A DNA stretch of 64,000 nt from Dehalococcoidia bacterium (GCA_965242755.1 OZ251500.1:1921339-1985338); one strand, 5' to 3'. Positions 13,085 through 32,134 are shown, numbered from the stretch's first letter. Notes: generated by a model not told the origin, from the letters alone. Made by a program: numbers and translations.

Positions 13085-13238
13085 AGCGAACTCCGCGTCT
13101 GCTCGGCGCATCCGTCTGCGATGGGTAGTGTAGCACAGGCTCCGGAGACATTTGCAAACCTCCCGCCCTGCCCGCTTTCGCAGGAGCGCCACCCCGCCCC
13201 CGCCATCCCCGCTTTCGCGGAAACCCACCGCCCCGCTC

Positions 13239-14156
13239 TCACCCCGCCGCCGCTTGCAGCGCGGCCTCCAACTCCTCAAGGGCCGCGTAGCCCTCGAAAC
13301 GCGCGGCGACGCGGGCGTCCGTTCCGATTACGAACGTCCACGACTCGTTGCGGTAGTGCGGAACCTGGTCTATCCCCCACTCCGCCAGATGCGGCGAGAG
13401 AACGCCTAGCGAAAGGTCGCCCTGAATCTCCTGCGGGTTGTCGTACACCTCGACGTGAATGTAGTCCGCCGCGTCCGGGTTGGCTTGCCGCAGTTCCGAG
13501 ACGGTGTCCACCTGCGGGCCGCAAGTCGCCGTCGTGCAGAACGCGGGCGAGGCGAACACGGCCACCGTCGGCCTGCCGCTGAACAGCGACTCCGCAATGC
13601 TCACCTCGTAGAGCGCAGGGTCGGCGCGGTAGTGCGACGTGATGCTCGTCAAGTCGCCCCCGGCCGACTGCAGCGTCTTCGTGTCGCTGAACGGCGCGAT
13701 CTGCCCGATGTCGCGCACGACGGACGTCTCGTCCACGCGAACCTCCAGCGCCGCCTTGCCGCCGTCCGCATTGACGTCCAGCCGCCACCTGCCCGCTTGC
13801 GGGAACGTAAGCGGCGTCACGTAGGAGCCGCGCGTGCCGAACGGCCATTCGTGGAACGTCGCCGTCGCCGTTTCGCCCTCCGCCTCCCCGTCAAGGAACG
13901 ACGTTCGGACGGTCGCCTGCGGAGCGCGAACGAGCGCCGTGCCCGACGCGAGCAGGAACGCCACGCGCTGCGTCCCCGTCCGCAGGACGGTCGTCGAGAG
14001 GATGGCGATCAACTCGCCGTCTTGCGCGGCGGACGCGGGAATGGGCGTGGGCGTGGGGGTCGTCGCGGCGGTCGGCGACGACGGCGCGGAGCATGCGGCG
14101 GCGAGAACGCAAGCGGCGAGGGCGGCGAGCGCCGTATGCGGAAGCGGGCGCGGCAT
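13239..14156 (-). CDS. Secreted lipoprotein with a C-terminal thioredoxin-like region
   Basis: Signal/lipobox MPRPLPHTALAALAACVLAAAC. The C-terminal part contains VAVFASPAFCTTATCGP, a Cys pair in a thioredoxin-fold-like context. Confidence 0.5.
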   Translation of the reverse strand: MPRPLPHTALAALAACVLAAACSAPSSPTAATTPTPTPIPASAAQDGELIAILSTTVLRTGTQRVAFLLASGTALVRAPQATVRTSFLDGEAEGETATATFHEWPFGTRGSYVTPLTFPQAGRWRLDVNADGGKAALEVRVDETSVVRDIGQIAPFSDTKTLQSAGGDLTSITSHYRADPALYEVSIAESLFSGRPTVAVFASPAFCTTATCGPQVDTVSELRQANPDAADYIHVEVYDNPQEIQGDLSLGVLSPHLAEWGIDQVPHYRNESWTFVIGTDARVAARFEGYAALEELEAALQAAAG

Positions 14157-14169
14157 AGCGAACGCGCTC

Positions 14170-15540
14170 CTAGTAGACCTCGTCGTAGGAGCCGAACGTC
14201 AGCGCGAACAGCGCGAAGTCCGGGGAGTTGGACGCGAACTTGACCTCGGCGGCGGCGAACTCCGGCAGCGCGACGGCGTTGTACAAGTCCGGCTCGTCCA
14301 CGACGAAGTAACTGCGCCCGCCCTCGATGACGATGTGCTCGCCGGCCTCGTCCGCCGTGAGCGGGCGGTAGTCGAGTTCCACGCCCGGATCCGCGTCGGC
14401 GGGCGGCAAATCGGCGATGAAAACGTCCACCTCGAACGGCTCCGTCCCCTCCGGGAAGCCGACGACGATGTTCACCGTGCGCGCGAGGAAGCGCAGCGCG
14501 AGCCAATCCTCAAGGCTTTCGGTCGACCTCGCGTGGATGATGGATTCGTCGCCGGAGCGCCATGAGCCGTTGAGGTACATAAACTGGTTGAGGTGAATCC
14601 CGGGGTCGCGGTAAAACTGGGTAAGCCCTGCGCCGTCGTAGTATTCGGGATGGGCGATGTAGAGGCCCGTCGGCGAGGAGTTGCGGTTCCACCCGCCGTA
14701 GATCTCGCGCGTCTGCCGATCCTCGAGCGAGGACGCCTCATACGCTCTTCGGTCGGCCTCCGGCCCCCGATCCGGGTTCACGGCGATGTCCGACACGTCG
14801 CCGCCGGCCTCTTCGAGCAGTTCGCGGATGAGGCGCTCCGTCTCGTCGTAAGCGCCCTCGCCGAATTTTGTGTAGCGCACCACGCCGTTCGCGTCGATCA
14901 GATACTTGGCGGGCCAGTAGCGGTTGCCGTAGGCGCGCCAAGTGCGGAAATCGTTGTCCTGCGCCACCGGCCAAACGACGCGCTGCTTCTCCGATGCGTT
15001 GATCACGTTCTCCGTGACCTTCTCGTACTCGAACTCCGGCGTGTGCACGCCGATCAGCGAGAGGCCGCGGTCCGCGTACTTCGCGTGCCAGTCGCGCAGG
15101 TACGGCAGCGTGCGGATGCAGTTGACGCACGTGTACGTCCAGAAATCGATGAGGACGACGTTCCCGCGCAATCCTGCCATCGTCAGCGGCTCGCTGTTCA
15201 GCCACCGATTGACGCCGACGAACTCCGGCGCGCGGTCGCCCACCGCCCCGCCCGTGTCCCCGGACTCCGCCACCGGGGTGGACGTCGGATGCGGCGTCTG
15301 CATATCGCCGTCGCCGCCTGCCGACCCCGACCCGGAACCTCCGCCATCGCTCTCCGACTCGGAACCTGCGCCATCGCCGCCTGCCGACCCCGACGCAGAC
15401 TCCGCGACAGGCGCCGCTTCCGGCGCGGCGGACGTCGGATCCGCCTCGTCCGCTCCGCGGCAGCCCGCCGCCAGCAGCAGCAGCGCCACGACGACCGCCG
15501 CGGCAGCGGCGACCGCCAGCGCCAGCGACGCGAACGCCAT
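14170..15540 (-). CDS. Thioredoxin-like (redoxin) lipoprotein with a DipZ-C-terminal-like extension
   Basis: Lipobox LLLLAAGC. The redoxin core reads VVLIDFWTYTCVNCIRTLPYLRDWHAKYADRGLSLIGVHTPEF...NRYWPAKYLID. The start is set to MAFASLAL (ATG 15540), because the upstream part of the ORF runs through repeat modules. Confidence 0.7.
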   Translation of the reverse strand: MAFASLALAVAAAAAVVVALLLLAAGCRGADEADPTSAAPEAAPVAESASGSAGGDGAGSESESDGGGSGSGSAGGDGDMQTPHPTSTPVAESGDTGGAVGDRAPEFVGVNRWLNSEPLTMAGLRGNVVLIDFWTYTCVNCIRTLPYLRDWHAKYADRGLSLIGVHTPEFEYEKVTENVINASEKQRVVWPVAQDNDFRTWRAYGNRYWPAKYLIDANGVVRYTKFGEGAYDETERLIRELLEEAGGDVSDIAVNPDRGPEADRRAYEASSLEDRQTREIYGGWNRNSSPTGLYIAHPEYYDGAGLTQFYRDPGIHLNQFMYLNGSWRSGDESIIHARSTESLEDWLALRFLARTVNIVVGFPEGTEPFEVDVFIADLPPADADPGVELDYRPLTADEAGEHIVIEGGRSYFVVDEPDLYNAVALPEFAAAEVKFASNSPDFALFALTFGSYDEVY

Positions 15541-15784
15541 GCGCCCCCGCGCCCGCCGCTTCCGGTCGTTCTCGTGAAGGCGGGAGCCCTCACCCCGTCC
15601 CTCTCCCGTTTGACGGGAGAGGGGGGCGGATGGCGCCCGCCGCGACGCTCCGCGCTCCCGGTAGTAATCTCTGTCCGCGATGCCCACGGCGCGTTCCTCC
15701 TCCGCGTCGGTTCGCCTCGTTCCGCGCGAGCGAACGCGCATGTCGCTATAGTATCCGATTGCGCCGCTTTGCGCTCCGCCCATA

Positions 15785-15892
15785 GAGACCTTTGCATAAC
15801 CTGTCGCCCTGCCCCGCGTAGGCGGGAATCCATAGCGGAGCGAAGCGCTCCCACGTAAGCGCTCGTCATTCCCGCGTAGGCGGGAATCCAGG
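15785..15892. repeat. Composite repeat-family copy (one TIR-type end plus two CCCGCGTAGGCGGGAATCC hairpins)
   Basis: GAGACCTTTGCATAAC, then CCCGCGTAGGCGGGAATCC, then GCGCTCCCACGTAAGCGC, then CCCGCGTAGGCGGGAATCC. Confidence 0.65.
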
Positions 15893-16080
15893 AACCCGCC
15901 TAGGCTGCCGTAGGCATTCGCCCTTCAGCGCCCCATCGTCGTCTACGCAGTTATGCTCCTCTTCTACGAAGAGGAGGAGGCGCTTGCGCGGCGAGCTGGA
16001 TTCCCGCCTACGCGGGAATGACGGTAGTCCCCGCGCCGCTTGCGGCGCGCGGCGCCGCTGGTGTACGCTTGCGCTCCGCT

Positions 16081-19000
16081 ATGCCCATCGCCAACCTGAA
16101 CGACGCCCGCGAAGTCGACGGCGCCATCGGGCGCGTCTTCCGCGCCAACTCCGCCGACGAGCGCGAGGCCGCCGTCCGCAGCCTCTTCGTCGAGGCGCTG
16201 GACTTCGAGCGCGCGTCCGGCCTAGTCGCCCTGGACATGCGGCATGGGGCGGACGCGCGGCATAGGACGGGCGGCGCGTCCGCGAGCGTTAGGCTCCCCG
16301 AAGACGCCCGGCGCGTCGCCTCGCTCGACGGCGTTCACGTCCTCTACGTTGACCTCGCGGAGGGCGACGCGCCCCCGAACCGCGTCCGCGCGGCGGAGGC
16401 GGCGACGGCGGCGCAACGCATCGCCGAAAGCCTCGGCGAGGATCTGCTGCTCGTCTTCACCTGCGCGGCCTCAAGCGAACGCGCCGGCGGAGTCGGCCCC
16501 GCGTCGAGACCGGGGGCGTCGCAGGCTGGAGCCGGCGCCGCGTCGCAAATCCACGTCGTCCGGCCGGCGTTCCGCGGACGGCGGCCGACGCTTCGCAGGA
16601 TCGTCGTCGAGCGCGGACTGCCGCGGCGCACCGCCGTTCAGCAGGTCGCCAACATCTACGCCGAATGGACGACGACGCGCAACCTCCGCGGCGCCCTCGA
16701 CGCCGCCTTCGACGTGGAGCGCGTCACCAACGCCTTCTTCTCAACCTACCGCGAACTCTTCGAGGGCGCCGCCGCGCTTGTTCAGGGGTTCGCGGACGAC
16801 GAGGGCGACGAGAGGCGCCTGTTCGTCCTCACGCTCTTCAACCGGCTGATGTTCGTCTACTTCCTCTCGCGCAAGGGATGGCTGACGTTCCGCGGCGACA
16901 GGGAGTATCTCGACGCGCTCTGGGCCGACTATCAGGCCAACCGGGGGAGCGTCGGCTTCTACGGGGAGCGGCTGCGCCCCCTCTTCTTCGCCGGCCTCAA
17001 CAACTCCCAATCGCAAGACCTCAACTGGGAGGGCAAGCCGCTCGCCGCGCTCATCGGCAGCGTCCCCTTCCTCAACGGCGGGCTCTTCGCCGAAACGCCC
17101 CTCGACAAGCGCTCCGGCGTCGTCGTCCCCGACGAGGCCGTCAGGCCCGTCCTCAGCGAGTTGTTCGGCAAGTTCAACTTCACCGTGATGGAGTCCACGC
17201 CTTTCGACGTCGAGGTCGCCGTCGACCCGGAGATGCTCGGCAAGGTGTTCGAGGAACTCGTCACGGGCCGGCATTCGTCGGGCGCCTACTACACGCCGCG
17301 GCCCGTCGTCGCCTTTATGTGCCGCGAGGCGCTCAAGGGCTACCTCGCCGACCGCCTGCCCGCGCTGGGGCGGGACGACCTCGCCGCGTTCGTGGACGAC
17401 CGCGCCCTTACGCGGGCGACCGTCGACCATGCGGACGCGCTCCGCGACGCGCTGCGGGGCGCCGCCGTCGTGGACCCCGCCTGCGGCTCCGGCGCCTATC
17501 TGCTCGGCATGCTGCAGGAACTCGTCGAACTCGCGTCCCTGCTCGACGCCGACGCGCTCCGCGCCAGCGCCAACTATATGCACGACCTCAAGCGCCGCGT
17601 CATCGAGCGCAACATCCACGGCGCCGACAAGGACGAATTCGCCGTCAACATCGCGATGCTCCGCCTCTGGCTCTCCCTCGCCATCGAGCACGAAGGCGAC
17701 CGCCCCCAGCCGCTCCCCAACCTCGACTTCAAGATCGTCTGCGGCGACAGCCTCCTCGCCCCGGACCCCAACCCGGCGGACTATCCCGATCTGTTCCGGC
17801 GCGCCGCGCTCGAAAAGGCCGACGCGCTTGACCGCGCCAAAGAGCGCCACTTCGCCGCCGCAGGCTCCGCCAAGCAAGAGGCCGAACTCGACGTTCAGAA
17901 CGCGAAAGCCGCGCTCGCCGAAGCGCTCGAAGCCGCCGCTCCGGAAGGCGCCGTTGATTGGCGCATCGAGTTCGCCGACGTCTTCGCCAAGCGCGGCGGC
18001 TTCGACATCGCCGTCGCCAATCCGCCCTACGTCCGGCAAGAGGAGATCGGCCCCGCCAAAGCGCAATTGGAGCGGCTGTACGCCCCGGCTGCGAGGGGGC
18101 GCTCCGACCTCTATTGCTACTTCTACCTGCGCGCCCTCCAACTGCTCGCGCCCGGCGGCATGCACGTGTTCATCTGCTCCAACTCATGGCTGGACGTCGG
18201 CTACGGCGAGCCGCTGAAAGCGCAACTCCTCGCCGACGCCTCCGTCCGCGCCGTCTACGAAAGCGCCGTCGAACGGCAATTCTCCACCGCCGACGTCAAC
18301 ACCATCATTAGCATCATCCAAAAGACGCCGCCGCGGGGGGCGGCCCAAACGCGGTTCGTCTCCCTGCGGGCGGAGTTCGACTTGGCGCTGGCGGACGCGG
18401 AGAAACGGCGCGAGATTGTCGCAACGAGCGGTTCGGGGGAGACCAAGTCGGCGGATTTGGCGGCGTATCCTACGCCGCCAAATCCGCCGACTTCGCAATT
18501 TTCGGAATTCCGCCTTTCCGCCGCCGACAAGTGGGGAGCGGTCTACCTCCGCGCCCCGGACATTTATCACGCGATCCTCGCCAAAGGCGCGGGCAAACTC
18601 GTCCGCCTCGGCGACGTTGCGAATGTCAAATTCGGCATAAAGACCGGCGCGAACGACTTCTTCTACCTCGACCGCGCCGCCGTCGCCCATTGGGGAATGG
18701 AGGAGCGCTTCCTCGCGCCCGTGATGACCTCCCCGCAAGAGTCGCGCAGCATCCTGGTGGATCCCGCGACGCTCCCCTACCGCCTTTTCCTCTGCAACGA
18801 AGACCGCGAGGCTCTCGCCGGAACCGCCGCGCTCAACTACATCCGCCACGGCGAAGCGCAAGGCTTCCACAAGCGCAGCAGCGTCCGCTCGCGCAAACTC
18901 TGGTATGGGCTGGGGGACAGAGAACCAATTAACTTGGCTATGAACAAACTCGTGAACACGACCGCGCGAACATTCCTTGTCCGTAACGGCATGCTTTTCA

Positions 19001-19377
19001 CCGACAATTTTCAGATATTCGCATCCGACGCCGCTCCTGCCATCATCTGCGCTTTGATGAACTCATCAGTAACGCAACTGGCCGTCAACATCACTGCTCG
19101 AGCGAATTTCGGGCAGGGCGTGCTTGAGATACAAACCTACGAGACCGAAAACTTGCTGATACTCGACCCTTCAACGTATGGAGAGGCCAATGAGGACATC
19201 TTTCGTTCGGCGCAGTGGGACGTATTGGATCCGTCGGCGGAGCGTCGGGAGATAGACGGGGTAGTGTTCGATGCGTTGGGTCTGACGGAGGGGGAGCGGG
19301 CTGGGGTGTACGAGGCGGCGTCGGAGTTGGTGACGCGGCGCATTGAGAAGGCGAGGAGTCTGCGTAAGGGCGGGTAG
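16081..19377 (+). CDS. Large gamma-class N6-adenine DNA methyltransferase (Eco57I/PglX/type IIG-like) with a C-terminal specificity region
   Basis: Helical spacer motif LFVLTLFNRLMFVYFLSRKGWL, GAYYTPRPVV, motif I VVDPACGSGAYLLG, NIHGADKDEFAVNIAMLRLWL, and motif IV DIAVANPPYV. About 400 aa follow as a TaqI-like C-terminal region. The start is moved to ATG 16081 (MPIANLND) because the earlier start lies in a repeat module. Confidence 0.85.
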   Translation: MPIANLNDAREVDGAIGRVFRANSADEREAAVRSLFVEALDFERASGLVALDMRHGADARHRTGGASASVRLPEDARRVASLDGVHVLYVDLAEGDAPPNRVRAAEAATAAQRIAESLGEDLLLVFTCAASSERAGGVGPASRPGASQAGAGAASQIHVVRPAFRGRRPTLRRIVVERGLPRRTAVQQVANIYAEWTTTRNLRGALDAAFDVERVTNAFFSTYRELFEGAAALVQGFADDEGDERRLFVLTLFNRLMFVYFLSRKGWLTFRGDREYLDALWADYQANRGSVGFYGERLRPLFFAGLNNSQSQDLNWEGKPLAALIGSVPFLNGGLFAETPLDKRSGVVVPDEAVRPVLSELFGKFNFTVMESTPFDVEVAVDPEMLGKVFEELVTGRHSSGAYYTPRPVVAFMCREALKGYLADRLPALGRDDLAAFVDDRALTRATVDHADALRDALRGAAVVDPACGSGAYLLGMLQELVELASLLDADALRASANYMHDLKRRVIERNIHGADKDEFAVNIAMLRLWLSLAIEHEGDRPQPLPNLDFKIVCGDSLLAPDPNPADYPDLFRRAALEKADALDRAKERHFAAAGSAKQEAELDVQNAKAALAEALEAAAPEGAVDWRIEFADVFAKRGGFDIAVANPPYVRQEEIGPAKAQLERLYAPAARGRSDLYCYFYLRALQLLAPGGMHVFICSNSWLDVGYGEPLKAQLLADASVRAVYESAVERQFSTADVNTIISIIQKTPPRGAAQTRFVSLRAEFDLALADAEKRREIVATSGSGETKSADLAAYPTPPNPPTSQFSEFRLSAADKWGAVYLRAPDIYHAILAKGAGKLVRLGDVANVKFGIKTGANDFFYLDRAAVAHWGMEERFLAPVMTSPQESRSILVDPATLPYRLFLCNEDREALAGTAALNYIRHGEAQGFHKRSSVRSRKLWYGLGDREPINLAMNKLVNTTARTFLVRNGMLFTDNFQIFASDAAPAIICALMNSSVTQLAVNITARANFGQGVLEIQTYETENLLILDPSTYGEANEDIFRSAQWDVLDPSAERREIDGVVFDALGLTEGERAGVYEAASELVTRRIEKARSLRKGG

Positions 19378-19486
19378 GGGGCGCGCCCCAACTCCCCTCT
19401 CCTTCTGGGAGAGGGGCCGGGGGTGAGGGCGGTTCCGCGCAGGGCGGCGACCCTCACCCGCCGCTACGCGGCTGCCCTCTCCCGGA

Positions 19487-19630
19487 GGAGACCTTTGCAT
19501 AACTCCCGGGCCCCAGTAGGTTCCCGCTTTCGCGGGAACGACGGGGCGCTTACGTAGGAGAGGAGCGGCGCTCCGCGCCGCCTGGATTCCCGCCTACGCG
19601 GGAATGACGGTAGGTTATGCAAAGGTCTCC
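19487..19630. mobile_element. MITE-like element (144 bp) with perfect 17-bp TIRs, followed by a partial second copy up to 19712
   Basis: GGAGACCTTTGCATAAC at 19487-19503 is the reverse complement of GTTATGCAAAGGTCTCC at 19614-19630. The interior is the reverse complement of the units at 51834-51954 and 60027-60140. The right half is repeated at about 19646-19712. Confidence 0.55.
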
Positions 19631-19806
19631 AAAGGGAGAGGGCGGGAGCGGCGCTCCGCGCCGCCTGGATTCCCGCCTACGCGGGAATGACGGTAGGTTA
19701 TGCAAAGGTCTCCCTCTGGGAGAGGACGGCGCGCAAGCGGGTTCGGGGAGCCTGCTCGCGCCCGGCCCTCCCCCAGATTCTGTTAAGATGAGCAGAGGGA
19801 GACGCT

Positions 19807-20448
19807 ATGCCTGTTCCAGCCAACCCGAAGATCTACCACATCGTTCACGTAGACCGCCTGCCGTCCATCGTCGCGGACGGCTTTATTTGGAGCGACGCGG
19901 AGGCTGGTCGGCGCGACGCGCCCGGCACGACGATCGGCGTGGACAAGATCAAGCGGCGGCGGCTGAGCGAGTTGACGTTGGGCAACAGCCATCCGGATTT
20001 GCATGTGGGCGAATGCGCCCCGTTCTACTTCTGCCCGCGCTCCGTGATGCTGTACGTGATCCACATGGCGAACCTCCCTGAACTGACCTATCAGGGCGGG
20101 CAAGGCCCAATCGTTCACTTACAGGCCGACCTGCGCCAATCAGTCGCTTGGGCGGACGCCAACCGCCGCCGCTGGGCGTTCACGACATCCAGCGCCGCCG
20201 CCAAGGAATTTGAGGATTACAACGACTTGGCTCATTTAGACAAGGTCGACTGGGACGCGGTGGAGTCTCAGGATTGGCGAGGACGTCGGGGGAAGCAAGC
20301 AGAATTCTTGATGGAACATTCGTTCCCGTGGAGTCTGGTTGAGCGCATTGGCGCTCACTCGCCCGAAATCTGTGATAGAGTGCGGGTGGCGATGACGGGA
20401 GCGGAACATCAGCCGGTTGTCGAGGCGACCCCGACCTGGTGCTACTAG
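19807..20448 (+). CDS. darT: DarT (DUF4433) DNA ADP-ribosyltransferase toxin
   Basis: KIYHIVHVDRLPSIV, APFYFCPRSVMLYVIH and RRGKQAEFLMEHSFPWSLVERIG match the DarT pattern, including the catalytic Glu context QAEFL. Confidence 0.85.
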   Translation: MPVPANPKIYHIVHVDRLPSIVADGFIWSDAEAGRRDAPGTTIGVDKIKRRRLSELTLGNSHPDLHVGECAPFYFCPRSVMLYVIHMANLPELTYQGGQGPIVHLQADLRQSVAWADANRRRWAFTTSSAAAKEFEDYNDLAHLDKVDWDAVESQDWRGRRGKQAEFLMEHSFPWSLVERIGAHSPEICDRVRVAMTGAEHQPVVEATPTWCY

Positions 20449-20463
20449 CGAGAGGCGGCGGCG

Positions 20464-21495
20464 ATGATCGAGTACAAGACAGGCGACATTACGGGCGAGG
20501 ACGCCGAGGCGCTCGTCAACACGGTCAACTGCGTTGGCGTTATGGGCAAGGGCGTCGCCTTGAGTTTCAAGGAAGCCTTCCCCGACAACGCGCGGGCATA
20601 CGCAAGGGCTTGCGAGCGCAAAGAGGTCGAGCCCGGGCGCATGTTCGTGTTCGAAACGGAGTCGCCCGCCAACCCGCGCTACATCGTCAACTTTCCGACC
20701 AAGCGGCACTGGCGCGGCAAGAGCAAGATGGAGGACATCGAGTCCGGCCTCGCGGCGCTGGGCGAAGAAGTGCGGAGCCGGGGGATACGGTCCATCGCCT
20801 TGCCGCCGTTGGGCAGCGGGCTCGGCGGGCTGGACTGGAGCGCGGTGCGCCCGCGCATCGAGAAAACCATCGGGGCGATGGAAAGCGTCAGAGTCGTTGT
20901 CTTCCAGCCAAGCGGTCAAGCGCAGCCGTTCGTCCCAAGTCCCCTTGCGCCGAAGATGACGGTAGGCAGGGCGGCGCTCGTCGCGCTGATCGACCGCTAC
21001 CTGGCGGGGCTGCTGGACCCGTTCGTAACGTTGTTGGAGACCCAGAAACTCATGTACTTTATGCAAGAGGCGGGCGAACCGTTGAACCTGCGGTTCCAGG
21101 AAGGCCATTACGGCCCCTACGCCGACAACCTGCGCCACGTCCTGAAAGCCATCGAAGGCCACTTCGTGTCGGGCTACGCCAGCCGCGACGCCCCGGATGA
21201 GACGATAGACCTCGTGCCCGGGACGGTTGACGACGCCAACGCTTTCCTGCAAGACCACCCCGAAACCCGAGTGCGCTTTGAGCGCGTGAGCGACCTCGTT
21301 GACGGCTTCGAATCGTCCTTCGGCCTCGAACTGCTGGCGACGACGCATTGGGTCGCATCGCCGTCCGCGCCGCCTGAAGAGGTCATCGCCCGCGTCCACG
21401 CTTGGGGCGAGCGAAAGCGGCGGTTCTCGGAACGGCAAATCCGCCTAGCCCTAGACGCGCTCGGCGAAAAGGGCTGGATCGAGTCCCCTGCGTAG
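20464..21495 (+). CDS. darG: DarG macrodomain antitoxin (DNA ADP-ribosyl glycohydrolase)
   Basis: GDITGEDAEALVNTVNCVGVMGKGVALSFKEAFP...IVNFPTKRHWRGKSKMEDIESGL...IRSIALPPLGSGLGGLDW is the DarG macrodomain signature. A ~190-aa C-terminal domain follows. The gene starts 16 nt after darT. Confidence 0.85.
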   Translation: MIEYKTGDITGEDAEALVNTVNCVGVMGKGVALSFKEAFPDNARAYARACERKEVEPGRMFVFETESPANPRYIVNFPTKRHWRGKSKMEDIESGLAALGEEVRSRGIRSIALPPLGSGLGGLDWSAVRPRIEKTIGAMESVRVVVFQPSGQAQPFVPSPLAPKMTVGRAALVALIDRYLAGLLDPFVTLLETQKLMYFMQEAGEPLNLRFQEGHYGPYADNLRHVLKAIEGHFVSGYASRDAPDETIDLVPGTVDDANAFLQDHPETRVRFERVSDLVDGFESSFGLELLATTHWVASPSAPPEEVIARVHAWGERKRRFSERQIRLALDALGEKGWIESPA

Positions 21496-21511
21496 AAGGC
21501 GGGAGGCGAAT

Positions 21512-22063
21512 ATGATGCTCGCGCCGGTTGACCCAATCGAAAGCCACGCCGCCCACAGCGAACGGCTGCTTGACCACGCGGCGCGGATGATCGAGGAAGG
21601 CGACCGCGTTCAGGCGTGCGAGAAGATTTGGGGCTCGGTGTCGCACCGCCTCCGCGAGATCGCCTACAAGCGCGGCTGGCCGGTCAAGGCGAACGCCGAC
21701 TACCGCGACGTCGCCCGCTACGTCGCGCAGGAGACGGGCGACGAGGAGTTGCAGGGGTTGGGGGCGTTTCAGGCGTATCACGTCAACTTCTACGAAGACA
21801 CGATGGACGAGGCGGACATCCGGGAAGGGCTGGAGAGGGCGCGGCGCGCATGCGAGGAACTGGACGCGGCGGACGCGGCGCTGGACGAGAGTCTCCCTCC
21901 GCCGCATGGCCCGGCGTTCCGCTCCTACGAGCGCCGGCATGGCCTCGTTCCGAACCCGCCGTATTCGGCGGAAGAGTGGGCGGAGCATTGCCGTCGCCAA
22001 GACCGGCTCGCCGAGCGGGCGAAGGCCAACGCCGCGCGCGCCGGATTCCCGCCGTCCGCCTAA
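21512..22063 (+). CDS. PaREP1-like (HEPN-superfamily helical bundle) protein
   Basis: EEGDRVQACEKIWGSVSHRLREIAYKRGWPVKANADYRDVARYV...FQAYHVNFYEDTMD matches the PaREP1 pattern (GD..qA.EK.WGA....lKa.A..rGW....H..l...v......A..LH.NFYE). It starts 16 nt after darG and is preceded by GGGAGG. Confidence 0.5.
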   Translation: MMLAPVDPIESHAAHSERLLDHAARMIEEGDRVQACEKIWGSVSHRLREIAYKRGWPVKANADYRDVARYVAQETGDEELQGLGAFQAYHVNFYEDTMDEADIREGLERARRACEELDAADAALDESLPPPHGPAFRSYERRHGLVPNPPYSAEEWAEHCRRQDRLAERAKANAARAGFPPSA

Positions 22064-22212
22064 CGGACCCCGGCGCCCCCCGCCATGACCGCGTAGGCGG
22101 GGATTCTCCTGGGATGCAGGGAAGGCAAAAGTCGCTTACGGGGAAATGCGGCGCGCGGAGCCGCATATGCTACACTCGGCGGGCCGCGTAGGCCCAACCT
22201 CCTCCCATCGCA

Positions 22213-25200
22213 ATGAACGTTCTGCACGCCCGCACCGATCCGCCTCTGCTTGACCGGCTCAAGGAGATGCTGGCGCATTCCGCGCGGGCGGACTTCGCCG
22301 TCGGCTACTTCTTCATCAGCGGATTCGAGGCGGTCGCGGATAGTCTGGCCGGCGTCCAAAAGGCGCGGATTCTCGTCGGGCATGCGGACAAGCAGGTGAC
22401 GGAGCAGGTCGCCTACGGGCTGCAGCAGGCGGAGGCGATTCGGGCGCGGCAAGAGGCGGACGACTCCCCGCGGCGGCGGGAGCGAGAGGAGTCGGCGCGC
22501 CGCGCCGCCGAGAACGTCGGCAAGGCGGCGTCGCTGATGCCGCAGGACGCCGCGTCGGAGCGCGCCGTCGCCGCGCTGCGCGACCTGATCGCGTCGGGGC
22601 GCGCGGAGGTCCGCTCCTACGCGCGCGGGCCGCTCCACGCCAAGGCGTACCTCTGCTGGTACGAAGGCCACGCCGAGCCGGGGGCGGCGGTGGTGGGGTC
22701 GTCCAACCTGACGCTGGCGGGCTTCACGCGCAACACGGAACTGAACGTGCGCGTGACCGGCGACGCGGAGATGCGGGAGTTGGGCCGCTGGTTCGACGAA
22801 CTGTGGGAGGACTCCGCCGACATCGGGCAGGAGATCGTCGAGGAACTGAACCGCTCATGGGCGCTCGCGCGCACGACGCCCTACGAGGTCTACCTCAAGG
22901 CGCTGTGCGAACTCTACGGGGATGAGGCGGGAGAGCCGCTGCCGCTCGCGCCTGGCCGCTCCGAGGAACTGGCGAACTTCCAACTGGACGCGGCGGCGCG
23001 GGCGCTGCGGATGATTGACGAGCGCGGGGGCTGCTACATCGGGGACGTGGTGGGGCTTGGGAAGACGTTCATCGGGGCGGAGATCCTGCGCCAGTTGCGC
23101 GTGAGTTATCCGAACGACGGGCCGCCGCTCATCCTCTGCCCCGCCGGGCTCGTTCCGATGTGGCGCCGCTTCAACGAGCGATTCGGACTCGGCGCGGAGG
23201 TCGTCTCGCACAGCATAATCGGCGAACCGCCCGGGCAGGAGTACGACGACGAATTAGGGCGCTACGTGGACGCGGACGCGCCCGGCGGCGGGATCATTCT
23301 GCGCGAGGCGTACCCGAACCGCGGCGCCGTGCTGGTGGACGAGGCGCACAACTTCCGCAACGTCAACCGCCGCTCGCGCGGCCTGCGGAACTACCTCGAA
23401 TCGGGCTCCCACAAAGTCGTCCTCCTCAGCGCCACTCCGCAGAACCTCGGCCCGATGGACGTCTACCGGCAGTTGCGCCTCTTCCTCGACGAGACGGCGC
23501 ACGGCCTCGACATCGACCCCGTCAACCTGGAGGAGTACTTCCGCAACGCGCAGCGCTGGCGCGAATTCCGCGCCGACGACGAAAACTACCGCAAGTCCTA
23601 CGAGAAATGGGAGCGCGGCGGGCGAGCCGGCCCCGCCCCAATGAACAAGCCGTCGCCGCCCGGCGTCCCCCGCGCCGACGTCGAGAATGTGCTGCATCCG
23701 GTGTTCATACGCCGCCGCCGGAAGGACATCGTCGAAATCTACGGCGCAAGCGCGGAGGTCAACGGCAAGCCCGTTCGCTTCCCCGAGCCGCGCCTCGACA
23801 ACCTCTCCTACCGCCTGGACGCCGTCTACAAGAAAGCGGGCGCGCTGCCCGACCTGATGGCGGCGCTGGATGCTCATACGGGAGCGCGCTACCGCGCCGC
23901 CGAGTACGTGAAGCCGGAAGCCCGCGACAAGCCGGAGCACCGCGACCTCTTCCGCGCCGGAGACCGCATCGCCGGCCTGATGCGCGTCCAACTGCTCAAG
24001 CGGCTGGAGTCCAGCATCGAGGCGTTCCGCTCCACGCTCAACTCGCTCGCCCAGAGCAACCGCAAATTCGCGCAAGCGCTCAAATCCGGCTATGTCCCCA
24101 TCGGGCGAACCGCCGCCCGGATGCTCGCGGGGCAGGGATTCGGCGCGGACGAACTGCTCGACGTCTTGCGCCAGGAAGAGGAGCGGCGGGGCGGCGCGGG
24201 CGGCGGAAGCCGCGGCAAATTCACGCATGCGGCCGCGGACTTCCGCGTCAAGGACTGGATCGCCGACCTCGACAAGGACCACGCCGCGCTGAGCGGGTTG
24301 CTCGACAGGGTGAAGGACATCGGCCCCGAGGACGACAGCAAACTCGCCGCGCTCCGCGAGTTCCTCAAGCGCCCCGACGTTCAGGCGGGCAAACTCCTCG
24401 TCTTCTCGGAGGCGGAGACCACGATCGACTACCTCTACCGCCAACTGAATCCGGACGGCGCCGACCCGTCCATCGCGCGACTCTCCGGCTCGAACCGCGA
24501 TCAGATTGAGCAGATCACGCGGCGCTTCTCCCCGGGCTCGAACGGCGGCGCGCCAAGCGGCGCGGCGGAAGCGCGCGCGCTCCTCGCGACCGACGTCGTG
24601 TCGGAGGGGCAGAATCTGCAGGATTGCGCCCGCGTGCTCAACTACGACCTCCACTGGAACCCGGTGCGCCTCATTCAACGCTTCGGTCGCGTCGACCGCA
24701 TCGGCTCCGAACACGCCTTCATCCACCTCCACAATATGTGGCCGGACATGGAAGTGGACGCGAGGCTTTCCTTGACCGAGCGCCTCCGTAACCGCGTCCA
24801 GTGGTTCCACGACCTCATTGGGCTGGACACGAAACTCCTCTCGGAAGCGGAGCGGCTGAACGGCGCGGCGATGTACCGCATCTACGAACGCAAAGAGTTG
24901 CCCGATGACGAGGATGACATGGACGAGGCGGCCGCGGGCCAGCGCGGCGTCGCCTTGCTCCAACGGATCAGGGAGAGCGATCCGTCGCTCTGGGAACGGC
25001 TCGCCTCGCTCCCCGACGGGATCCGCTCCGCGCTGCGCGTCAGGTCCGCCCAGGGCTCGGAGCCAGGCGGCGCGCAAGCGGGCGGACGATCGGGCGAGGA
25101 AGGCGGCGGGGCGCAAATTCCGCTCGTGTCGCCGTCGGACCCCGGCGCGCCGCCGTCCGCGTTCGATCCGCCCCGGCCAGGCGAAACGCTTGCGCTTATG

Positions 25201-25689
25201 GCGGCCGGCGGCGTGAGGCAGTGCTACGCGGTCGGGAGCGACTTGCAGCCCCGCGCAGTGAGCCCCGCGCAGTTCGCCGCAGCCGCCGCCTGCGAGCCGG
25301 ACACGCCCGCCGCTCCGCTTCCCGACGATACGAACGAGCGCGTTACGGCCGCGAGCGCCGACTTCCGCCGGAGCCTCGGCAGACGGCTGGGCAGAGCCCG
25401 CCGCCCCCACGACGCGCGCCGACGCTACGTCGAGCGCAGCCTCCGCGACCCGGAGGTCGACGATCCGCGCGCGGACGCCCTGCGCCGCATCTTCACCAAC
25501 GACCTCCCGCATGAAGCGGAGACCGCGCTCAACGACGCCCGCCGCTTGGGGCTGCAAGGCAAAGCCTTGCTCGACCGCCTCCACGCGCTCCGCGAGCGCC
25601 ACCGCCTCAACCCGCCGGAGGCGGCGGACGCGGAAGCCGCGCAGCCGCGGGTCGTCCGCATCGTCTGCTCCGACGGCCTCGCGGAGTAG
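22213..25689 (+). CDS. PLD(HKD)-nuclease domain fused to an SNF2-family helicase/translocase
   Basis: The N-terminus carries a single HKD motif (GPLHAKAYLCW...VVGSSNLTLAGF). SNF2 motifs follow: DVVGLGKTFIG (I), VLVDEAHNFRN (II), LLSATPQNL (III), LLATDVVSEGQNLQD (V), NYDLHWNPVRLIQRFGRVDRIG (VI). Confidence 0.85.
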   Translation: MNVLHARTDPPLLDRLKEMLAHSARADFAVGYFFISGFEAVADSLAGVQKARILVGHADKQVTEQVAYGLQQAEAIRARQEADDSPRRREREESARRAAENVGKAASLMPQDAASERAVAALRDLIASGRAEVRSYARGPLHAKAYLCWYEGHAEPGAAVVGSSNLTLAGFTRNTELNVRVTGDAEMRELGRWFDELWEDSADIGQEIVEELNRSWALARTTPYEVYLKALCELYGDEAGEPLPLAPGRSEELANFQLDAAARALRMIDERGGCYIGDVVGLGKTFIGAEILRQLRVSYPNDGPPLILCPAGLVPMWRRFNERFGLGAEVVSHSIIGEPPGQEYDDELGRYVDADAPGGGIILREAYPNRGAVLVDEAHNFRNVNRRSRGLRNYLESGSHKVVLLSATPQNLGPMDVYRQLRLFLDETAHGLDIDPVNLEEYFRNAQRWREFRADDENYRKSYEKWERGGRAGPAPMNKPSPPGVPRADVENVLHPVFIRRRRKDIVEIYGASAEVNGKPVRFPEPRLDNLSYRLDAVYKKAGALPDLMAALDAHTGARYRAAEYVKPEARDKPEHRDLFRAGDRIAGLMRVQLLKRLESSIEAFRSTLNSLAQSNRKFAQALKSGYVPIGRTAARMLAGQGFGADELLDVLRQEEERRGGAGGGSRGKFTHAAADFRVKDWIADLDKDHAALSGLLDRVKDIGPEDDSKLAALREFLKRPDVQAGKLLVFSEAETTIDYLYRQLNPDGADPSIARLSGSNRDQIEQITRRFSPGSNGGAPSGAAEARALLATDVVSEGQNLQDCARVLNYDLHWNPVRLIQRFGRVDRIGSEHAFIHLHNMWPDMEVDARLSLTERLRNRVQWFHDLIGLDTKLLSEAERLNGAAMYRIYERKELPDDEDDMDEAAAGQRGVALLQRIRESDPSLWERLASLPDGIRSALRVRSAQGSEPGGAQAGGRSGEEGGGAQIPLVSPSDPGAPPSAFDPPRPGETLALMAAGGVRQCYAVGSDLQPRAVSPAQFAAAAACEPDTPAAPLPDDTNERVTAASADFRRSLGRRLGRARRPHDARRRYVERSLRDPEVDDPRADALRRIFTNDLPHEAETALNDARRLGLQGKALLDRLHALRERHRLNPPEAADAEAAQPRVVRIVCSDGLAE

Positions 25690-25698
25690 TCGGCGCTC

Positions 25699-26820
25699 TT
25701 ACGCGCGGTTGGGAATGAACTCCCCCATGCGGGACTTGAGGCCGCGCTTGGCGAGTTCCGCCTCGAAGAGGTCGTGGATGCGCGGGTCCTCGTCTTCGTA
25801 CTCGATCTGCATGCCGCCGGCCTTCTCCGACTTGTCCATGTTCTCGTAGTTCCACATTTTGGACTCGAGCACGGGGTAGCGCGCGCCGCCGAAGTCGAAC
25901 ACGAGGTAGCGCGACTGGCCGGGCGAGACGTTGAAGTGCTGGTGGTAGGTCGGGCCGTCGGGCGGCGCGTAGAGCGTGCCCGGCTTCCAGTCGACGCGGA
26001 CGGTGTCCACGGGGTTTTCGCCCTCCTTCCAGAGGAGGGAGTAGCCCTCGCCGGTGACGCAGAAGATGTGGGCGCCGGCGTTGTGGGCGTGCGCCTTCTT
26101 GTAGGTGCCCTCAAAAAACTGGGAGATGTGGCAGTGCATCGAGGAGTCGCCGAGCAGGAACTGGATGTTGTTGCCGGCGGCGCCTCGCGCGACCCACGGG
26201 GGGAGTTCGAAGTTGACGAGTTCCGGCACGAAGTTCGTCTCCCACTGGTGGCGTCCGGGCTTGACCTGGCGGAACTCGCCCTCGCCTTCGAAGTACTTCT
26301 CGGCGGCCATGCGCTCCGGGAATTGGAAGGCGTTGTCGTAGATGAAGTCGGCGTTGCGGAAGACGTTGAAGATGATGGGGAGGTCGGTGACGGCGGCGAG
26401 GCGGGCGGGCTCCGTTCCCGACCCGTTGAAGATCTGGTGCTTGGCGTTGAGGGGGATGGCGAAGATGGCGCTGGGGCCCCACTCGAAGGAGTACTTGCGC
26501 TCGTCGGGGCGCTCGATGACGGTCGACCCGCGCCCGGAGACGACGTGGATCAGTTCGTCGTGCATGTGCCGCTCGGGCTTCAGTTCGCCGCCCGGGGGGA
26601 TCTCGACGACGTAGGCGGAGAGGTAGTCGCTCTTGCCCGCGACGTGGACGTACGTTCCGAGCCCGCCGAGGCGCTCCCACGGCTCGACCGGGACGGTATG
26701 GCAGTCCACGGCGTAGCCCTCGAAAACGGGGACGCCCTCCTCTTTGAGGAAGTCGCGGTAGGGGAAGACCCCGTAATAGGGGTTGAACTCAACGTCGTCG
26801 CCCATAGCATGCTCCGGCAC
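25699..26820 (-). CDS. Bicupin protein (gentisate 1,2-dioxygenase-like fold), paralogue 1
   Basis: Two cupin cores are present (VVEIPPGGELKPERHMHDELIHVVSGRG and GTYKKAHAHNAGAHIFCVTGEGYS). It is collinear with 60172..61302 along its full length. Confidence 0.7.
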   Translation of the reverse strand: MPEHAMGDDVEFNPYYGVFPYRDFLKEEGVPVFEGYAVDCHTVPVEPWERLGGLGTYVHVAGKSDYLSAYVVEIPPGGELKPERHMHDELIHVVSGRGSTVIERPDERKYSFEWGPSAIFAIPLNAKHQIFNGSGTEPARLAAVTDLPIIFNVFRNADFIYDNAFQFPERMAAEKYFEGEGEFRQVKPGRHQWETNFVPELVNFELPPWVARGAAGNNIQFLLGDSSMHCHISQFFEGTYKKAHAHNAGAHIFCVTGEGYSLLWKEGENPVDTVRVDWKPGTLYAPPDGPTYHQHFNVSPGQSRYLVFDFGGARYPVLESKMWNYENMDKSEKAGGMQIEYEDEDPRIHDLFEAELAKRGLKSRMGEFIPNRA

Positions 26821-26870
26821 GGGTCAGGATTGGCGCGCAGGTTACACCATCGGGCGGCGGGGCGCTAGCA

Positions 26871-29366
26871 TTGGGGACGCGGACGGGCAAGCCGCGCGGG
26901 GAGGCCAACTCATTGCCTGAAGCATATCGTCAAGCGCGGAGGGCGGGTCGCGCCTCTCGTTTTTGGCTGCCGGCCGCCGCGCTTGGCCTCGCGGCGATAG
27001 CCGCCGCCGCGTGCTCCGGGTCTGCGCCGTCGCCTACGCCTTCGGCGTCCGCCGCGCCCGCCCCAACGCCTGCGATCAGGATCGTCGAGTCGCTCGCCGC
27101 GCCCTCCGGGGTCGCCGTGGACGCCGCCGACAGGCGCCTCGCCGTTTCGTGGAGCCCGGTCGACGGCGCGACGGGCTACAAGGTCGCCGCCAGGCTGAAG
27201 AACGGCGTCGAACCCTTCGAGTGGAGCGAATACGCGGCGGACTCGTCGCCCTACGTCGTTCCTGACAGGTGGGCGGCGATGAGCGGGCTAGAGTATGAAG
27301 TCCGGACCGCCTCGGTCAACGCGGAAGGGCAATCCGTTTGGTCCGCCTCCGTTGCGGTGACGGCCCCCGAACTTCCCCGGGCGCCCGCCGGGGCCCTTGA
27401 AACTGAGACCTCCGGCCCGTATGCGGTGGGGGATCTGATGCGCGCGAGCCTGAGGAGCCAGAGGCCGATCGACCGCAAGTCGCTGTTCGTTTGGTCGGTA
27501 TGCGATCCGGAGGGGCAAGAGTGCGAACTGTTGCCCATCGTTGAACCGTCTTCCTATCTCTACCTTGTTCCTTGGGCCGCGCGAGGAAAGCGCGTGCAGG
27601 TTCAGACAGACTACGACAAAGACGGCTTGTCGTACACCGCAACGATTGCTCTTGGGGTCGTCAGTCTCACAGGATCGACTTTTCCTCAAGTGGATATGCC
27701 TCCGGGATGCGAGAGAGCGGCCCCTTCCGCGAGCGTGAACGCATTTACCCCGGAACCTCCTCTGTCTACGCTTTTGCACTACGTGGGATCGGAATCGGTT
27801 CAAATCGATTGGGACGGCGTAGGCGGCGGGGCTAGCGAGCCGCTCTGCAACGACCTGCTGGTCGCGACGCCTTGGGGGAGGATGGCCTTGGTGCGCGCGA
27901 ATGGAAAGGTGGAGCAACTCGAAGGGCAAGTTCCGATGAATTTAGAGGGGTTGCGCGAGCATCCGGACAGCTCCACCTTCGCTCCCAGCAGGTTTCGAGT
28001 CGCCGATATCCTGCTGAAGCAGCGCTCCAATTATCTATGGGATCTGTTCGTCACTCATCATTACTTCACTGGAGATTGCACTCGGTTTCGCTTGTCGTCC
28101 ACGATGGTTGCGATGGAAAACGGCAACCCTATAGTGTCCCCTTCATGGAGAACATTGTTCGATGCTGATCCATGCTTGGACTCGCCGGCGCATAGCGGAT
28201 ATCACTCGGGCGGGAAAATGTTAACTGACGGGGCGGAGCATCTGTTGGTCGTGATTGGCGACCATGGCTGGCTAAATACGGGCGGGGACACGCCGGGCGG
28301 ACGCGCTCTCTGGGCTCCTCAAGATCCCGGATCCCATTTAGGCAAACTGGTCCGCGTCGAAATCGCCTCCGGCGAGACGGAGATCCTGGCGTTTGGCCTT
28401 CGCAATCCGCAAGGGTTTGCGCGGGATGCGGAAGGCAATCTCTGGGAAACCGAGCACGGGCCGCAGGGCGGCGACGAACTCAACCTGCTCGAACCCGGTC
28501 TCAATTACGGCTGGCCTTCGGCAAGTTACGGAATTCCGTACGGCGGATACGTCATGGCTTCAGAAGTAGACGCTGTGGGCGAGCACGAAGGCTTTGTCAA
28601 ACCCAGATTCGCATGGGCCACCGCCATCGGCGTATCCGCCATGGTCGTGAATGACAAACGATGGTTTCCTCTGTGGAGAGACGACCTGCTGATCGGTTCG
28701 CTGGGATCCGATGAAACCGGGCGCTCGCTCTTCCGCGTCCGGCTCGACGGGACCCGCGCGCAGTATGTGGAGCGGATACCTGTCGGCGGGCGAGTGCGAG
28801 ACATCGCCCAGATGCCGGACGGACGCATAGCGCTGCTTATCGACGGGGGAACAGTCCGCTTCCTAAGCCGATCATCAGAACCCTGCGCCGACCGGACGGA
28901 GGAGCGACTGCGGCAGCGACTGCCGGTCTACGCGATTGGCTGCGACGCTTTGGCCGCGTTCGAAGCGAACCAAGCGGATTCGACGGACGAGAACGCGGGA
29001 GGGGCATACATCAGCCAAGACCCGTCGAGTTTAGCGAACGGCGCAAACTCAGCGGAAGGCAAGCCCGCCAGTGGAGCGCAACTCTACATGACGAACTGTG
29101 AAATCTGCCATAGCCTTGTCGCCAACCAGCACGGAATCGGTCCGCATCTTGCGAATCTCGTTGGGCGACGCATCGGGGAAGTGGACGGATGGAATTCGTC
29201 AGGGGCGCTCCGCTCGCTCGACGGCGTATGGACGCGGGACAGCCTCGCGCGGTTCCTCGCGGATCCGCAGGCGTTCGCGCCGGGGACGACGATGGGGTCG
29301 CAGGGGCTCTCCGAGTCGGAGGCCAGGGCTATCGCGGACTATGTCGCCGGACTGCGGGGCGAGTAG
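26871..29366 (+). CDS. Secreted lipoprotein: FN3-like module, PQQ-dependent sugar dehydrogenase beta-propeller and C-terminal cytochrome c domain (paralogue 1)
   Basis: Lipobox AIAAAACSG. FN3-like WSPVDGATGYKVAARLKNG. The SGDH signature reads FGLRNPQGFARDAEGNLWETEHGPQGGDELNLLEPGLNYGWP. Heme c site CEICH. It has a TTG start. Confidence 0.8.
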   Translation: MGTRTGKPRGEANSLPEAYRQARRAGRASRFWLPAAALGLAAIAAAACSGSAPSPTPSASAAPAPTPAIRIVESLAAPSGVAVDAADRRLAVSWSPVDGATGYKVAARLKNGVEPFEWSEYAADSSPYVVPDRWAAMSGLEYEVRTASVNAEGQSVWSASVAVTAPELPRAPAGALETETSGPYAVGDLMRASLRSQRPIDRKSLFVWSVCDPEGQECELLPIVEPSSYLYLVPWAARGKRVQVQTDYDKDGLSYTATIALGVVSLTGSTFPQVDMPPGCERAAPSASVNAFTPEPPLSTLLHYVGSESVQIDWDGVGGGASEPLCNDLLVATPWGRMALVRANGKVEQLEGQVPMNLEGLREHPDSSTFAPSRFRVADILLKQRSNYLWDLFVTHHYFTGDCTRFRLSSTMVAMENGNPIVSPSWRTLFDADPCLDSPAHSGYHSGGKMLTDGAEHLLVVIGDHGWLNTGGDTPGGRALWAPQDPGSHLGKLVRVEIASGETEILAFGLRNPQGFARDAEGNLWETEHGPQGGDELNLLEPGLNYGWPSASYGIPYGGYVMASEVDAVGEHEGFVKPRFAWATAIGVSAMVVNDKRWFPLWRDDLLIGSLGSDETGRSLFRVRLDGTRAQYVERIPVGGRVRDIAQMPDGRIALLIDGGTVRFLSRSSEPCADRTEERLRQRLPVYAIGCDALAAFEANQADSTDENAGGAYISQDPSSLANGANSAEGKPASGAQLYMTNCEICHSLVANQHGIGPHLANLVGRRIGEVDGWNSSGALRSLDGVWTRDSLARFLADPQAFAPGTTMGSQGLSESEARAIADYVAGLRGE

Positions 29367-29367
29367 G

Positions 29368-29428
29368 CTACGCCTCCAAGCGGCGGCAGCGCCGAGCGGC
29401 GGCGCTGAGGACGGCGATGAGCGCGAAG
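29368..29428 (-). pseudogene. Remnant of the 3-prime end of the MFS transporter gene, carried along by the tandem duplication
   Basis: CTACGCCTCCAAGCGGCGGCAGCGCCGAGCGGCGGCGCTGAGGACGGCGATGAGCGCGA matches 32135-32195 (the real MFS gene end) with a few substitutions. Confidence 0.6.
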
Positions 29429-32101: not shown

Positions 32102-32134
32102 CAGGAAAGCGTTGCGCGGGGGCTTCGGCTCTGC

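Follow-up and report, generated by a model that had tools for sequence, protein, structure and literature searches.

Do the five genes that follow one another on one strand at positions 16,081 to 25,689 of a 64,000-nucleotide stretch of DNA from a Dehalococcoidia bacterium (GCA_965242755.1, OZ251500.1:1921339-1985338; the whole stretch is referred to as the window, and positions are counted from its first nucleotide) act as a single defence system? They encode, in this order, an Eco57I/PglX-like N6-adenine DNA methyltransferase (MT), the toxin DarT, the antitoxin DarG, a PaREP1-family protein, and a protein in which a phospholipase D (PLD) nuclease domain is fused to an SNF2-type motor (PLD-SNF2). 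The original prediction, made from the sequence of the window alone, took them for an undescribed composite defence system. Scans of the open reading frames (ORFs) of the window against Pfam, the hidden Markov models of PADLOC and the NCBIfam models with their cut-offs bore out the layout, with five intact ORFs, all on the plus strand and all carrying the claimed domains. The unit itself is probably smaller: we consider it likely that the locus is a two-gene ATP-dependent restriction-modification (R-M)-like module made up of MT and PLD-SNF2, with a slot between the two genes that holds a swapped-in DarTG2 pair and a stand-alone PaREP1 gene.

Conservation of the methyltransferase and the PLD-SNF2 protein

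A scan for PLD-SNF2 identified 448 loci among the GTDB species representatives, of which 80 were fetched, all from Chloroflexota (Dehalococcoidia, SAR202, Tepidiformaceae and Caldilineaceae). Using tblastn and all-against-all clustering of ORFs, we compared the gene contents of 81 related Chloroflexota loci, in which the only recurrent families were PLD-SNF2 and MT. The latter was present in 70 of the 81 loci, and in 68 of these 70 it was located upstream of PLD-SNF2 on the same strand. Three of the 11 loci that lacked MT were short contigs and two retained a fragment of its target recognition domain (TRD). A conserved third gene was considered and rejected, with no other ORF cluster occurring in more than 19 of 82 loci. 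Several genomes carry two PLD-SNF2 loci.

Look-ups in the reciprocal direction, from MT homologues, found PLD-SNF2 downstream in three out of three cases. A tblastn search against plasmids recovered proteins of about 30% identity over the PLD and SNF2 regions, annotated as 'helicase-related protein', and a methylase of the Eco57I/MmeI_Mtase family adjoined this gene in all seven plasmid loci inspected. The hosts are Picosynechococcus, Thermococcus profundus, Rhodococcus ruber, Thermus oshimai, Pelobacter propionicus, Halorubrum lacusprofundi and Pseudarthrobacter chlorophenolicus, two of the seven genera being archaea, and in two of the seven loci a VapC or AbiEii toxin-antitoxin module is located between the two genes. 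Starting from either gene, the two co-occur far beyond chance (70/81, 3/3 and 7/7 loci), and we conclude that MT and PLD-SNF2 form a conserved pair that is inherited together throughout Chloroflexota and is also met with in further phyla of bacteria and archaea. A lack of such co-occurrence, named with the original prediction as a ground for refuting it, was thus not observed. The PLD-SNF2 family as a whole is large, with more than 4,200 database matches, the top 120 of which are 60-100% identical over their full length. Look-ups of the exact PLD-SNF2 and MT sequences of the window gave no recorded entry.

The divergence of the two proteins is also correlated. Pairwise identities of PLD-SNF2 followed those of the MT core (Spearman 0.58; none of 2000 permutations in a Mantel test reached the observed value), whereas no correlation was observed with the identities of the TRD (0.06). 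The mean identity among relatives is only 28% for the TRD as compared to 58% for the MT core. That PLD-SNF2 tracks the core and not the TRD is what one would expect if a restriction subunit were co-inherited with a methylase whose specificity domain is shuffled.

A slot for exchangeable genes between the two genes

The gap between MT and PLD-SNF2 in the Chloroflexota loci ranges from about 0.3 to 7 kb in size and is highly variable in content. Considering only cargo clusters that recurred across loci, we found an AF2212-like antitoxin with a PIN toxin, resembling VapBC, a ParE toxin, an XRE-type helix-turn-helix protein, a DUF4365 protein and its partner that correspond to PDC-M02A and PDC-M02B in PADLOC (3e-46 and 3e-82), an AAA_15 ATPase with PD-T4-4_A as its best PADLOC match, proteins with Abi_alpha/DUF2806 and DUF6338, and a GNAT fusion protein. 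The gap serves as a hotspot at which defence and toxin-antitoxin genes of other kinds insert. It also contains fragments of TaqI_C specificity domains, often inverted and located beside a tyrosine recombinase; such TRD cassettes were present in 16 related loci and the recombinase in 9. In two of these (L030:7331-8841 and L072:6634-8187), inverted repeats of about 170-280 nt that are 84-93% complementary connect the 3' end of the MT gene, which encodes the TRD, with a downstream TRD cassette that is inverted and located next to a tyrosine recombinase. These arrangements look like invertible, phase-variable specificity shufflons.

The DarTG pair of the window is of the DarTG2 type and looks functional, judging from its sequence. 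DarT matches PF14487 (3.5e-55) and exceeds the NCBIfam cut-off for toxin_DarT (206.9 against 150 bits), and its catalytic glutamate is aligned with the E160A position of PDB 7OMV. DarG scores 435.6 bits against a cut-off of 250 for antitoxin_DarG; its macrodomain, which is not of the NADAR type, matches 5M31 (3.5e-48) and includes the FPTKRHW lysine motif, its C-terminal DarT-binding domain matches 7YK3_B, and the gene starts 15 nt after darT. Among the 81 related loci, DarTG is located in the slot only in the window; the only other DarTG, in L073, is found 7 kb downstream on the opposite strand.

The comparison with L097, a near-identical strain, is decisive. This locus is fully syntenic with the window and encodes a PLD-SNF2 of 99% and an MT of 90% identity. 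At the nucleotide level, the identity is 93% over window positions 13043-19488 and 98% over positions 21545-34371, whereas the intervening segment, which comprises the repeat copies and the genes darT and darG, is missing from L097. The same place in L097 (6444-9332) contains 2.9 kb of other sequence with three genes, for proteins of 209 aa, 96 aa (an XRE helix-turn-helix protein) and 222 aa (a faint match to DUF7310). The exchange has its left breakpoint at about 19488/19489, within the spacer rich in repeats, and its right breakpoint at the 5' end of the PaREP1 gene. The G+C content at third codon positions is 0.757 for darT, 0.831 for darG and 0.745 for the TRD, as compared to 0.90 for the MT core and 0.89 for PLD-SNF2. 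DarTG is interchangeable cargo that was swapped into the slot recently.

PaREP1 follows a distribution of its own. The protein matches PF05942 (37.8 bits against a cut-off of 24.4), and no relative in PDB and no match to PADLOC or NCBIfam models was found. The window, L082 and L097, which are the three closest strains, all keep the gene just ahead of PLD-SNF2, whereas relatives at 79-82% identity lack it. Only nine homologues were found; those of 85-86% identity are either solitary, with housekeeping genes on both sides, or arranged in tandem pairs. PaREP1 stands alone and is distributed independently, with no link to DarTG or to the pair. The claim of an undescribed five-gene unit could thus not be upheld: only MT and PLD-SNF2 recur, L097 has other genes in the place of DarTG, and PaREP1 is distributed independently.

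The spacer between MT and darT, described earlier as filled with miniature inverted-repeat transposable elements, is filled with copies of a dispersed, palindromic REP-like repeat. Its 24-nt core, TTCCCGCCTACGCGGGAATGACGG, occurs 12 times in the window where 0 copies are expected. The repeat is located in intergenic spacers, at sites that include 548, 15863, 16001, 19587, 19670, 43480 and 55280, and the copies bracket both MT and the DarTG cassette. Two 69-nt direct copies in the spacer are located at 19562-19630 and 19645-19713. In L082, the PLD-SNF2 of which is 89% identical to that of the window, a gene for a luciferase-like monooxygenase with REP-like repeats on either side (L082:1157-2212) is located between PaREP1 and PLD-SNF2, indicating that the slot takes up non-defence genes too.

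Domain structure and proposed mechanism of the pair

The MT has Pfam matches to Eco57I (2e-31), M_Eco57I_C, N6_Mtase and MmeI_Mtase. Its AlphaFold2 model is of good quality (pLDDT 85.4, pTM 0.86) and divides the protein into an N-terminal alpha/beta domain (aa 1-180), a helical region (aa 183-460), the methyltransferase core (aa 463 to about 780) with the motifs DPACGSG and NPPY, and a TRD of the TaqI_C/M_Eco57I_C type (aa about 810-1093). In Foldseek comparisons, CamA and M.BseCI matched the core and the TRD, and BrxX/PglX matched near the full length of the model (1030-1070 alignment columns, TMq 0.44-0.47), followed by MmeI, BpuSI and DrdV.

The PLD-SNF2 protein matches PLDc_2 (aa 114-198), Helicase_C and, weakly, SNF2-rel_dom in Pfam. 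It consists of a single PLD domain with HxK and GSSN motifs (aa about 12-200), an SNF2 ATPase (GLGKT at 281-285, DEAH at 376-379 and Helicase_C at 710-831) and a C-terminal domain specific to the family (aa 881-1158). These 278 residues match only 161 clusters at 50% identity, most of which are fragments; in full-length proteins (about 1060-1175 aa) the match is likewise located at the C-terminus. The HxK and GSSN of the single HKD motif, GLGKT, DEAH and motif VI are invariant in the family, and the invariance of HxK and GSSN argues for catalysis. In nucleases with a single HKD motif, such as Nuc, BfiI and SauUSI, two copies form one active site, and the single motif of PLD-SNF2 implies that two copies would be needed here as well.

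From these domains and their context we infer that the pair restricts DNA. The MT would recognize a short asymmetric motif by means of its TRD and methylate the adenines of the host. On incoming unmethylated DNA, it would recruit or license PLD-SNF2, probably by contact between the two. Mod licenses Res in type III systems, and the methylase core licenses HsdR in those of type I, in much the same way. PLD-SNF2 would then translocate along the DNA by ATP hydrolysis and cut it with its HKD nuclease domain, two copies building each active site. We hold this mechanism of MT-licensed translocation and cleavage, taken by itself, to be somewhat more probable than the contrary. DarTG would add an independent layer of abortive infection, in which a disturbance of DarG upon infection leaves DarT to ADP-ribosylate thymidines in single-stranded DNA, so that replication stalls.

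Some observations weigh against a restriction module of this kind. Relatives of PLD-SNF2 without MT within 10 kb exist (L025, L053, L055, L066, L068 and L074), which may be orphan or re-partnered copies. The AlphaFold2 model of PLD-SNF2 is poor (pLDDT 62, pTM 0.37), and its Foldseek matches (SWR1, RapA, ZorD and SauUSI, with TM of 0.1-0.25) therefore back only the description as an SNF2 motor plus PLD, and weakly so. Finally, methylases of the PglX type can mediate exclusion without DNA cleavage in BREX. Upstream of PLD-SNF2, L025 encodes a DEAD/Helicase_C protein of 1075 aa and L066 a GAP1-N1 protein.

An alternative is that the MT is a self-contained enzyme of type IIG/IIL with its own N-terminal nuclease, and that PLD-SNF2 acts separately, as a SauUSI-like type IV enzyme or an accessory motor. 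The MT resembles the single-chain, MmeI-like enzymes of this type in that a gamma-class N6-adenine methyltransferase (NPPY) is followed by a C-terminal TRD in one chain. Its best PADLOC matches are REase_MTase_IIG models (1e-62), MmeI, BpuSI and DrdV are among its structural matches, and the N-terminal 180 residues adopt a PD-(D/E)xK-like topology in the model. However, the type IIG models align only from about aa 226 onward and thus miss the N-terminal domain, in which no conserved D...(D/E)xK signature and no conserved acidic/lysine triad was found across 80 homologues; D41 is the sole invariant polar residue. DPACGSG and NPPY are invariant across the same 80 homologues, and taken together the sequences and the model suggest that the MT is a methylase-only protein. 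As for PLD-SNF2, SauUSI (a type IV enzyme with PLD, SF2 helicase and SRA-like reader domains) is among its structural matches and shares the N-terminal single-HKD nuclease fused to an ATP-dependent motor, but SauUSI is modification-dependent and has no partner methylase, the motor here is of the SNF2 family, and no reader domain of the SRA/DUF3427 type was detected in PLD-SNF2 in the Pfam scan. A type IV enzyme would, moreover, clash with a linked adenine methylase unless it spared the mark. Separate action is also hard to reconcile with a pair that is tightly linked, co-inherited and recurrent across domains, and we regard this alternative as improbable.

It is also conceivable that the pair acts by BREX-like exclusion without cleavage or by epigenetic regulation, a PglX-like MT varying methylation by phase and the SNF2 motor remodelling unmodified DNA or blocking its replication, with the PLD domain being non-nucleolytic. 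The overall order of folds in the MT is that of BrxX/PglX, which serves as both methylase and specificity factor in BREX, and the invertible TRDs resemble phasevarions (PMC9881135). BREX type 1 restricts without detectable cleavage (PMC12707154). On the other hand, HxK and GSSN are invariant in the PLD domain across the family, the pair is found on plasmids and together with cargo of the defence type, and none of PglZ, BrxC, BrxA, BrxB and BrxL was found at the locus. The NCBIfam PglX models score only 23-60 bits on the MT against cut-offs of 400-900 (60 against 900 and 50.7 against 400), far below the level for equivalogs, so that the locus does not belong to BREX itself. We consider this explanation quite improbable.

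That all five products act together, for instance through crosstalk between ADP-ribosylation and methylation or with PLD-SNF2 acting on ADP-ribosylated DNA, is very unlikely and appears largely refuted by the comparative data, because DarTG occupies the slot in one of 71 loci with MT, L097 keeps MT, PaREP1 and PLD-SNF2 but not DarTG, and homologues of PaREP1 at 85-86% identity stand alone among housekeeping genes, even though all five genes share a strand, darT, darG and PaREP1 are separated by only 15-16 nt, and crosstalk has been speculated upon for DarTG inside type I R-M operons (PMC5179494).

A two-gene R-M-like module could also be part of something broader, namely a distinct class of ATP-dependent R-M systems that spans domains, in which the methylase is the specificity subunit and the slot is a 'cargo bay' maintained by selection. 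The bay would load second-line modules for abortive infection (DarTG here; VapBC, PD-T4-4, PDC-M02 and AbiE elsewhere), co-transcribed with the system and perhaps triggered when anti-restriction functions of a phage disable the first line. We put this combined reading forward tentatively and consider it doubtful.

Relationship to known systems

No PADLOC or NCBIfam library model assigned the whole locus to a named system, and neither HsdR and HsdS nor DrmA and DrmB (DUF1998) nor PglZ and BrxC were found among the neighbouring ORFs in the family scans. The placement of the locus outside type I R-M, DISARM and BREX as defined was therefore confirmed, the defining partners of each being absent. 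Partial similarities to several systems are nevertheless evident, and the best PADLOC match of PLD-SNF2 is the model C3a139, 'HKD+Snf2' (8e-51), along with partial matches to DrmD, HmaA, BrxH and DpdE.

In its effector the locus is most similar to Type-2 BR among the Hma and Type-2 BREX-related (BR) systems, which consist of the helicase HmaA, the methyltransferase HmaB and the DUF499 ATPase HmaC, with DUF3780 in type 2 (PMC12839542). Like the pair studied here, they have an R-M-like make-up in which an N6-adenine methyltransferase is accompanied by a Swi2/Snf2 helicase; the Type-2 BR helicase has an N-terminal HKD nuclease as in PLD-SNF2, a likeness at the level of architecture only, and the Hma operon is a documented hotspot for inserted defence genes (PMC12839542; PMC11232893). 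However, the MT is of the Eco57I/PglX type whereas the BR methylases are of the DUF1156/PglXI type (PMC12839542), and the PADLOC model for HmaA matches only the C-terminal helicase lobe of PLD-SNF2 (aa 709-842; 2e-20). No ORF for a DUF499 ATPase was found within about 10 kb, where the only proteins of more than 800 aa near the pair are MutS2 and glucose/sorbosone dehydrogenase (GSDH)-cytochrome c proteins, and the 81 loci contained no third conserved cluster that could represent it. Neither DUF3780 nor DUF1156 was found at the locus, and DUF3780 is not a conserved neighbour in the 81 loci. With an HKD plus Swi2/Snf2 helicase present, and with HmaC, a DUF1156-type methyltransferase and DUF3780 missing, we rejected membership in this group.

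DISARM class 1 (DrmA, DrmB, the PLD protein DrmC, the SNF2 protein DrmD and DrmMI) likewise combines an SNF2 helicase, a PLD nuclease and an Eco57I-like N6-adenine methylase, and the PADLOC models for DrmD, DrmC and DrmMI all match the pair partially. Here, in contrast, PLD and SNF2 are fused in one protein, which scores 150.9 with the NCBIfam model for DrmD against a cut-off of 610. DrmA and DrmB are absent among the neighbours in the window and from the conserved clusters of the 81 loci, and DISARM was therefore rejected as well.

As in type I R-M systems, the methylase carries the specificity and a separate ATP-dependent motor-nuclease would restrict. Type I operons also contain nested toxin-antitoxin and abortive infection modules, including DarTG, a point of the original prediction that is on record in the literature (PMC5179494, PMC12255303). 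In contrast to type I and type III systems, HsdS, HsdR and Res are all missing from the locus; the MT is a single chain that includes a TRD of its own, the nuclease belongs to the HKD/PLD and not to the PD-(D/E)xK type, and the motor is a member of the SNF2 family. Membership in type I was rejected, since no ORF between 11 and 33 kb matched HsdS or HsdR.

For the core pair, too, the term 'undescribed' proved too strong. Milman et al. (2023; PMC9881135) list, in their Table 3, a Cj0031-like type II R-M coding sequence beside one for a PLD (cd09178) and SNF helicase protein, and report programmed inversions in the Cj0031-like R-M coding sequences, with PglX genes being likewise targets of inversion. 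Both the arrangement of two genes and a phase-variable TRD are shared with the locus studied here, but the pairing is given there only as the context of an inversion and is not defined as a system, and no cargo slot is described. The HKD+Snf2 protein was furthermore listed, as cluster C3a139, among the candidate accessories to type III CRISPR loci (Shah et al. 2018), and an effector of this HKD-Snf2 kind is also employed by the Hma/Type-2 BR systems (PMC12839542). The available passages of a recent comprehensive review of R-M systems do not describe the two-gene architecture. The pairing is mentioned only in passing in the literature and is still unnamed.

Organization of the locus and neighbouring genes

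The coordinates of the features are listed in Table 1. The order of the genes and the large size of the methyltransferase agree with the original prediction, and a few values differ: the MT has 1098 and not 1099 aa, as in the deposited protein P0121 that begins at 16081, the spacer between MT and darT is 429 nt long, and the gaps of 430, 16, 16 and 150 nt are corrected to 429, 15, 16 and 149 nt. An ATG at 16018 was rejected as the start of the MT, being located inside a repeat copy (15996-16024) upstream of the start of P0121. A scan for promoters and terminators yielded no promoters, and terminators at the background rate.

Table 1. Positions of genes, repeats and other features at the locus, in window coordinates.
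Feature	Position	Strand	Length	Remarks
Two inverted REP-like palindromic repeat copies	15864..16024			directly upstream of MT
MT, Eco57I/PglX-like gamma-class N6-adenine DNA methyltransferase	16081..19377	+	1098 aa	core gene 1 of the pair
3' part of MT encoding the specificity domain (TRD)	18391..19377	+		hypervariable among relatives
MT-darT spacer with REP-like repeats	19378..19806			two 69-nt direct copies and inverted arms
Strain-specific cassette (repeat copies, darT, darG)	19489..21544			no homology to locus L097
DarT, DNA ADP-ribosyltransferase toxin	19807..20448	+	213 aa	
DarG antitoxin	20464..21495	+	343 aa	
PaREP1-family small helical protein	21512..22063	+	183 aa	
Degenerate REP-like repeat copy	22080..22104			in the PaREP1 to PLD-SNF2 spacer
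PLD(HKD)-SNF2 nuclease-translocase	22213..25689	+	1158 aa	core gene 2 of the pair

The flanking genes identified in the family scans encode a thioredoxin-like protein, two Uma2 proteins, MutS2, a cupin, two GSDH-cytochrome c proteins and a major facilitator superfamily transporter, which are not defence partners. The two Uma2 (DUF820) genes, of the kind annotated as 'putative restriction endonuclease', are located a few kb upstream of MT on the minus strand (11132-12022 and 12293-13279), and one of them has a weak PADLOC match to PDC-S03. The GSDH genes are tandem paralogs with fn3 and cytochrome c domains (26871-29366 and 29189-32101, plus strand); because these mechanically called ORFs overlap, the second probably starts later than listed. 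Further downstream, two tandem paralogous ORFs on the minus strand (43693-46701 and 46723-50124) encode very acidic proteins of 1002 and 1133 aa with signal peptides that are 35% identical to each other. Neither was matched in Pfam or PADLOC. Both are probably proteins of the cell surface or similar to those of S-layers, and the two ORFs are the source of the strong AT skew that the window shows at 45-50 kb.

Implications

No new principle is revealed by the locus. If the pair works as proposed, a simple two-gene architecture would join the ATP-dependent R-M-like systems (type I, type III, ISP, BREX, DISARM and Hma). It is represented by at least 448 loci among the GTDB species representatives of Chloroflexota alone, with more distant versions on plasmids of cyanobacteria, actinobacteria, Thermus, Desulfuromonadales and archaea. 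Since the two genes are currently annotated just as 'DNA methyltransferase' and 'helicase-related protein', inventories of defence systems probably miss the pair. The window and L097 differ by a clear-cut replacement of one cassette by another within a defence operon, and the slot that separates MT from PLD-SNF2 is an obvious hunting ground for new small defence genes.

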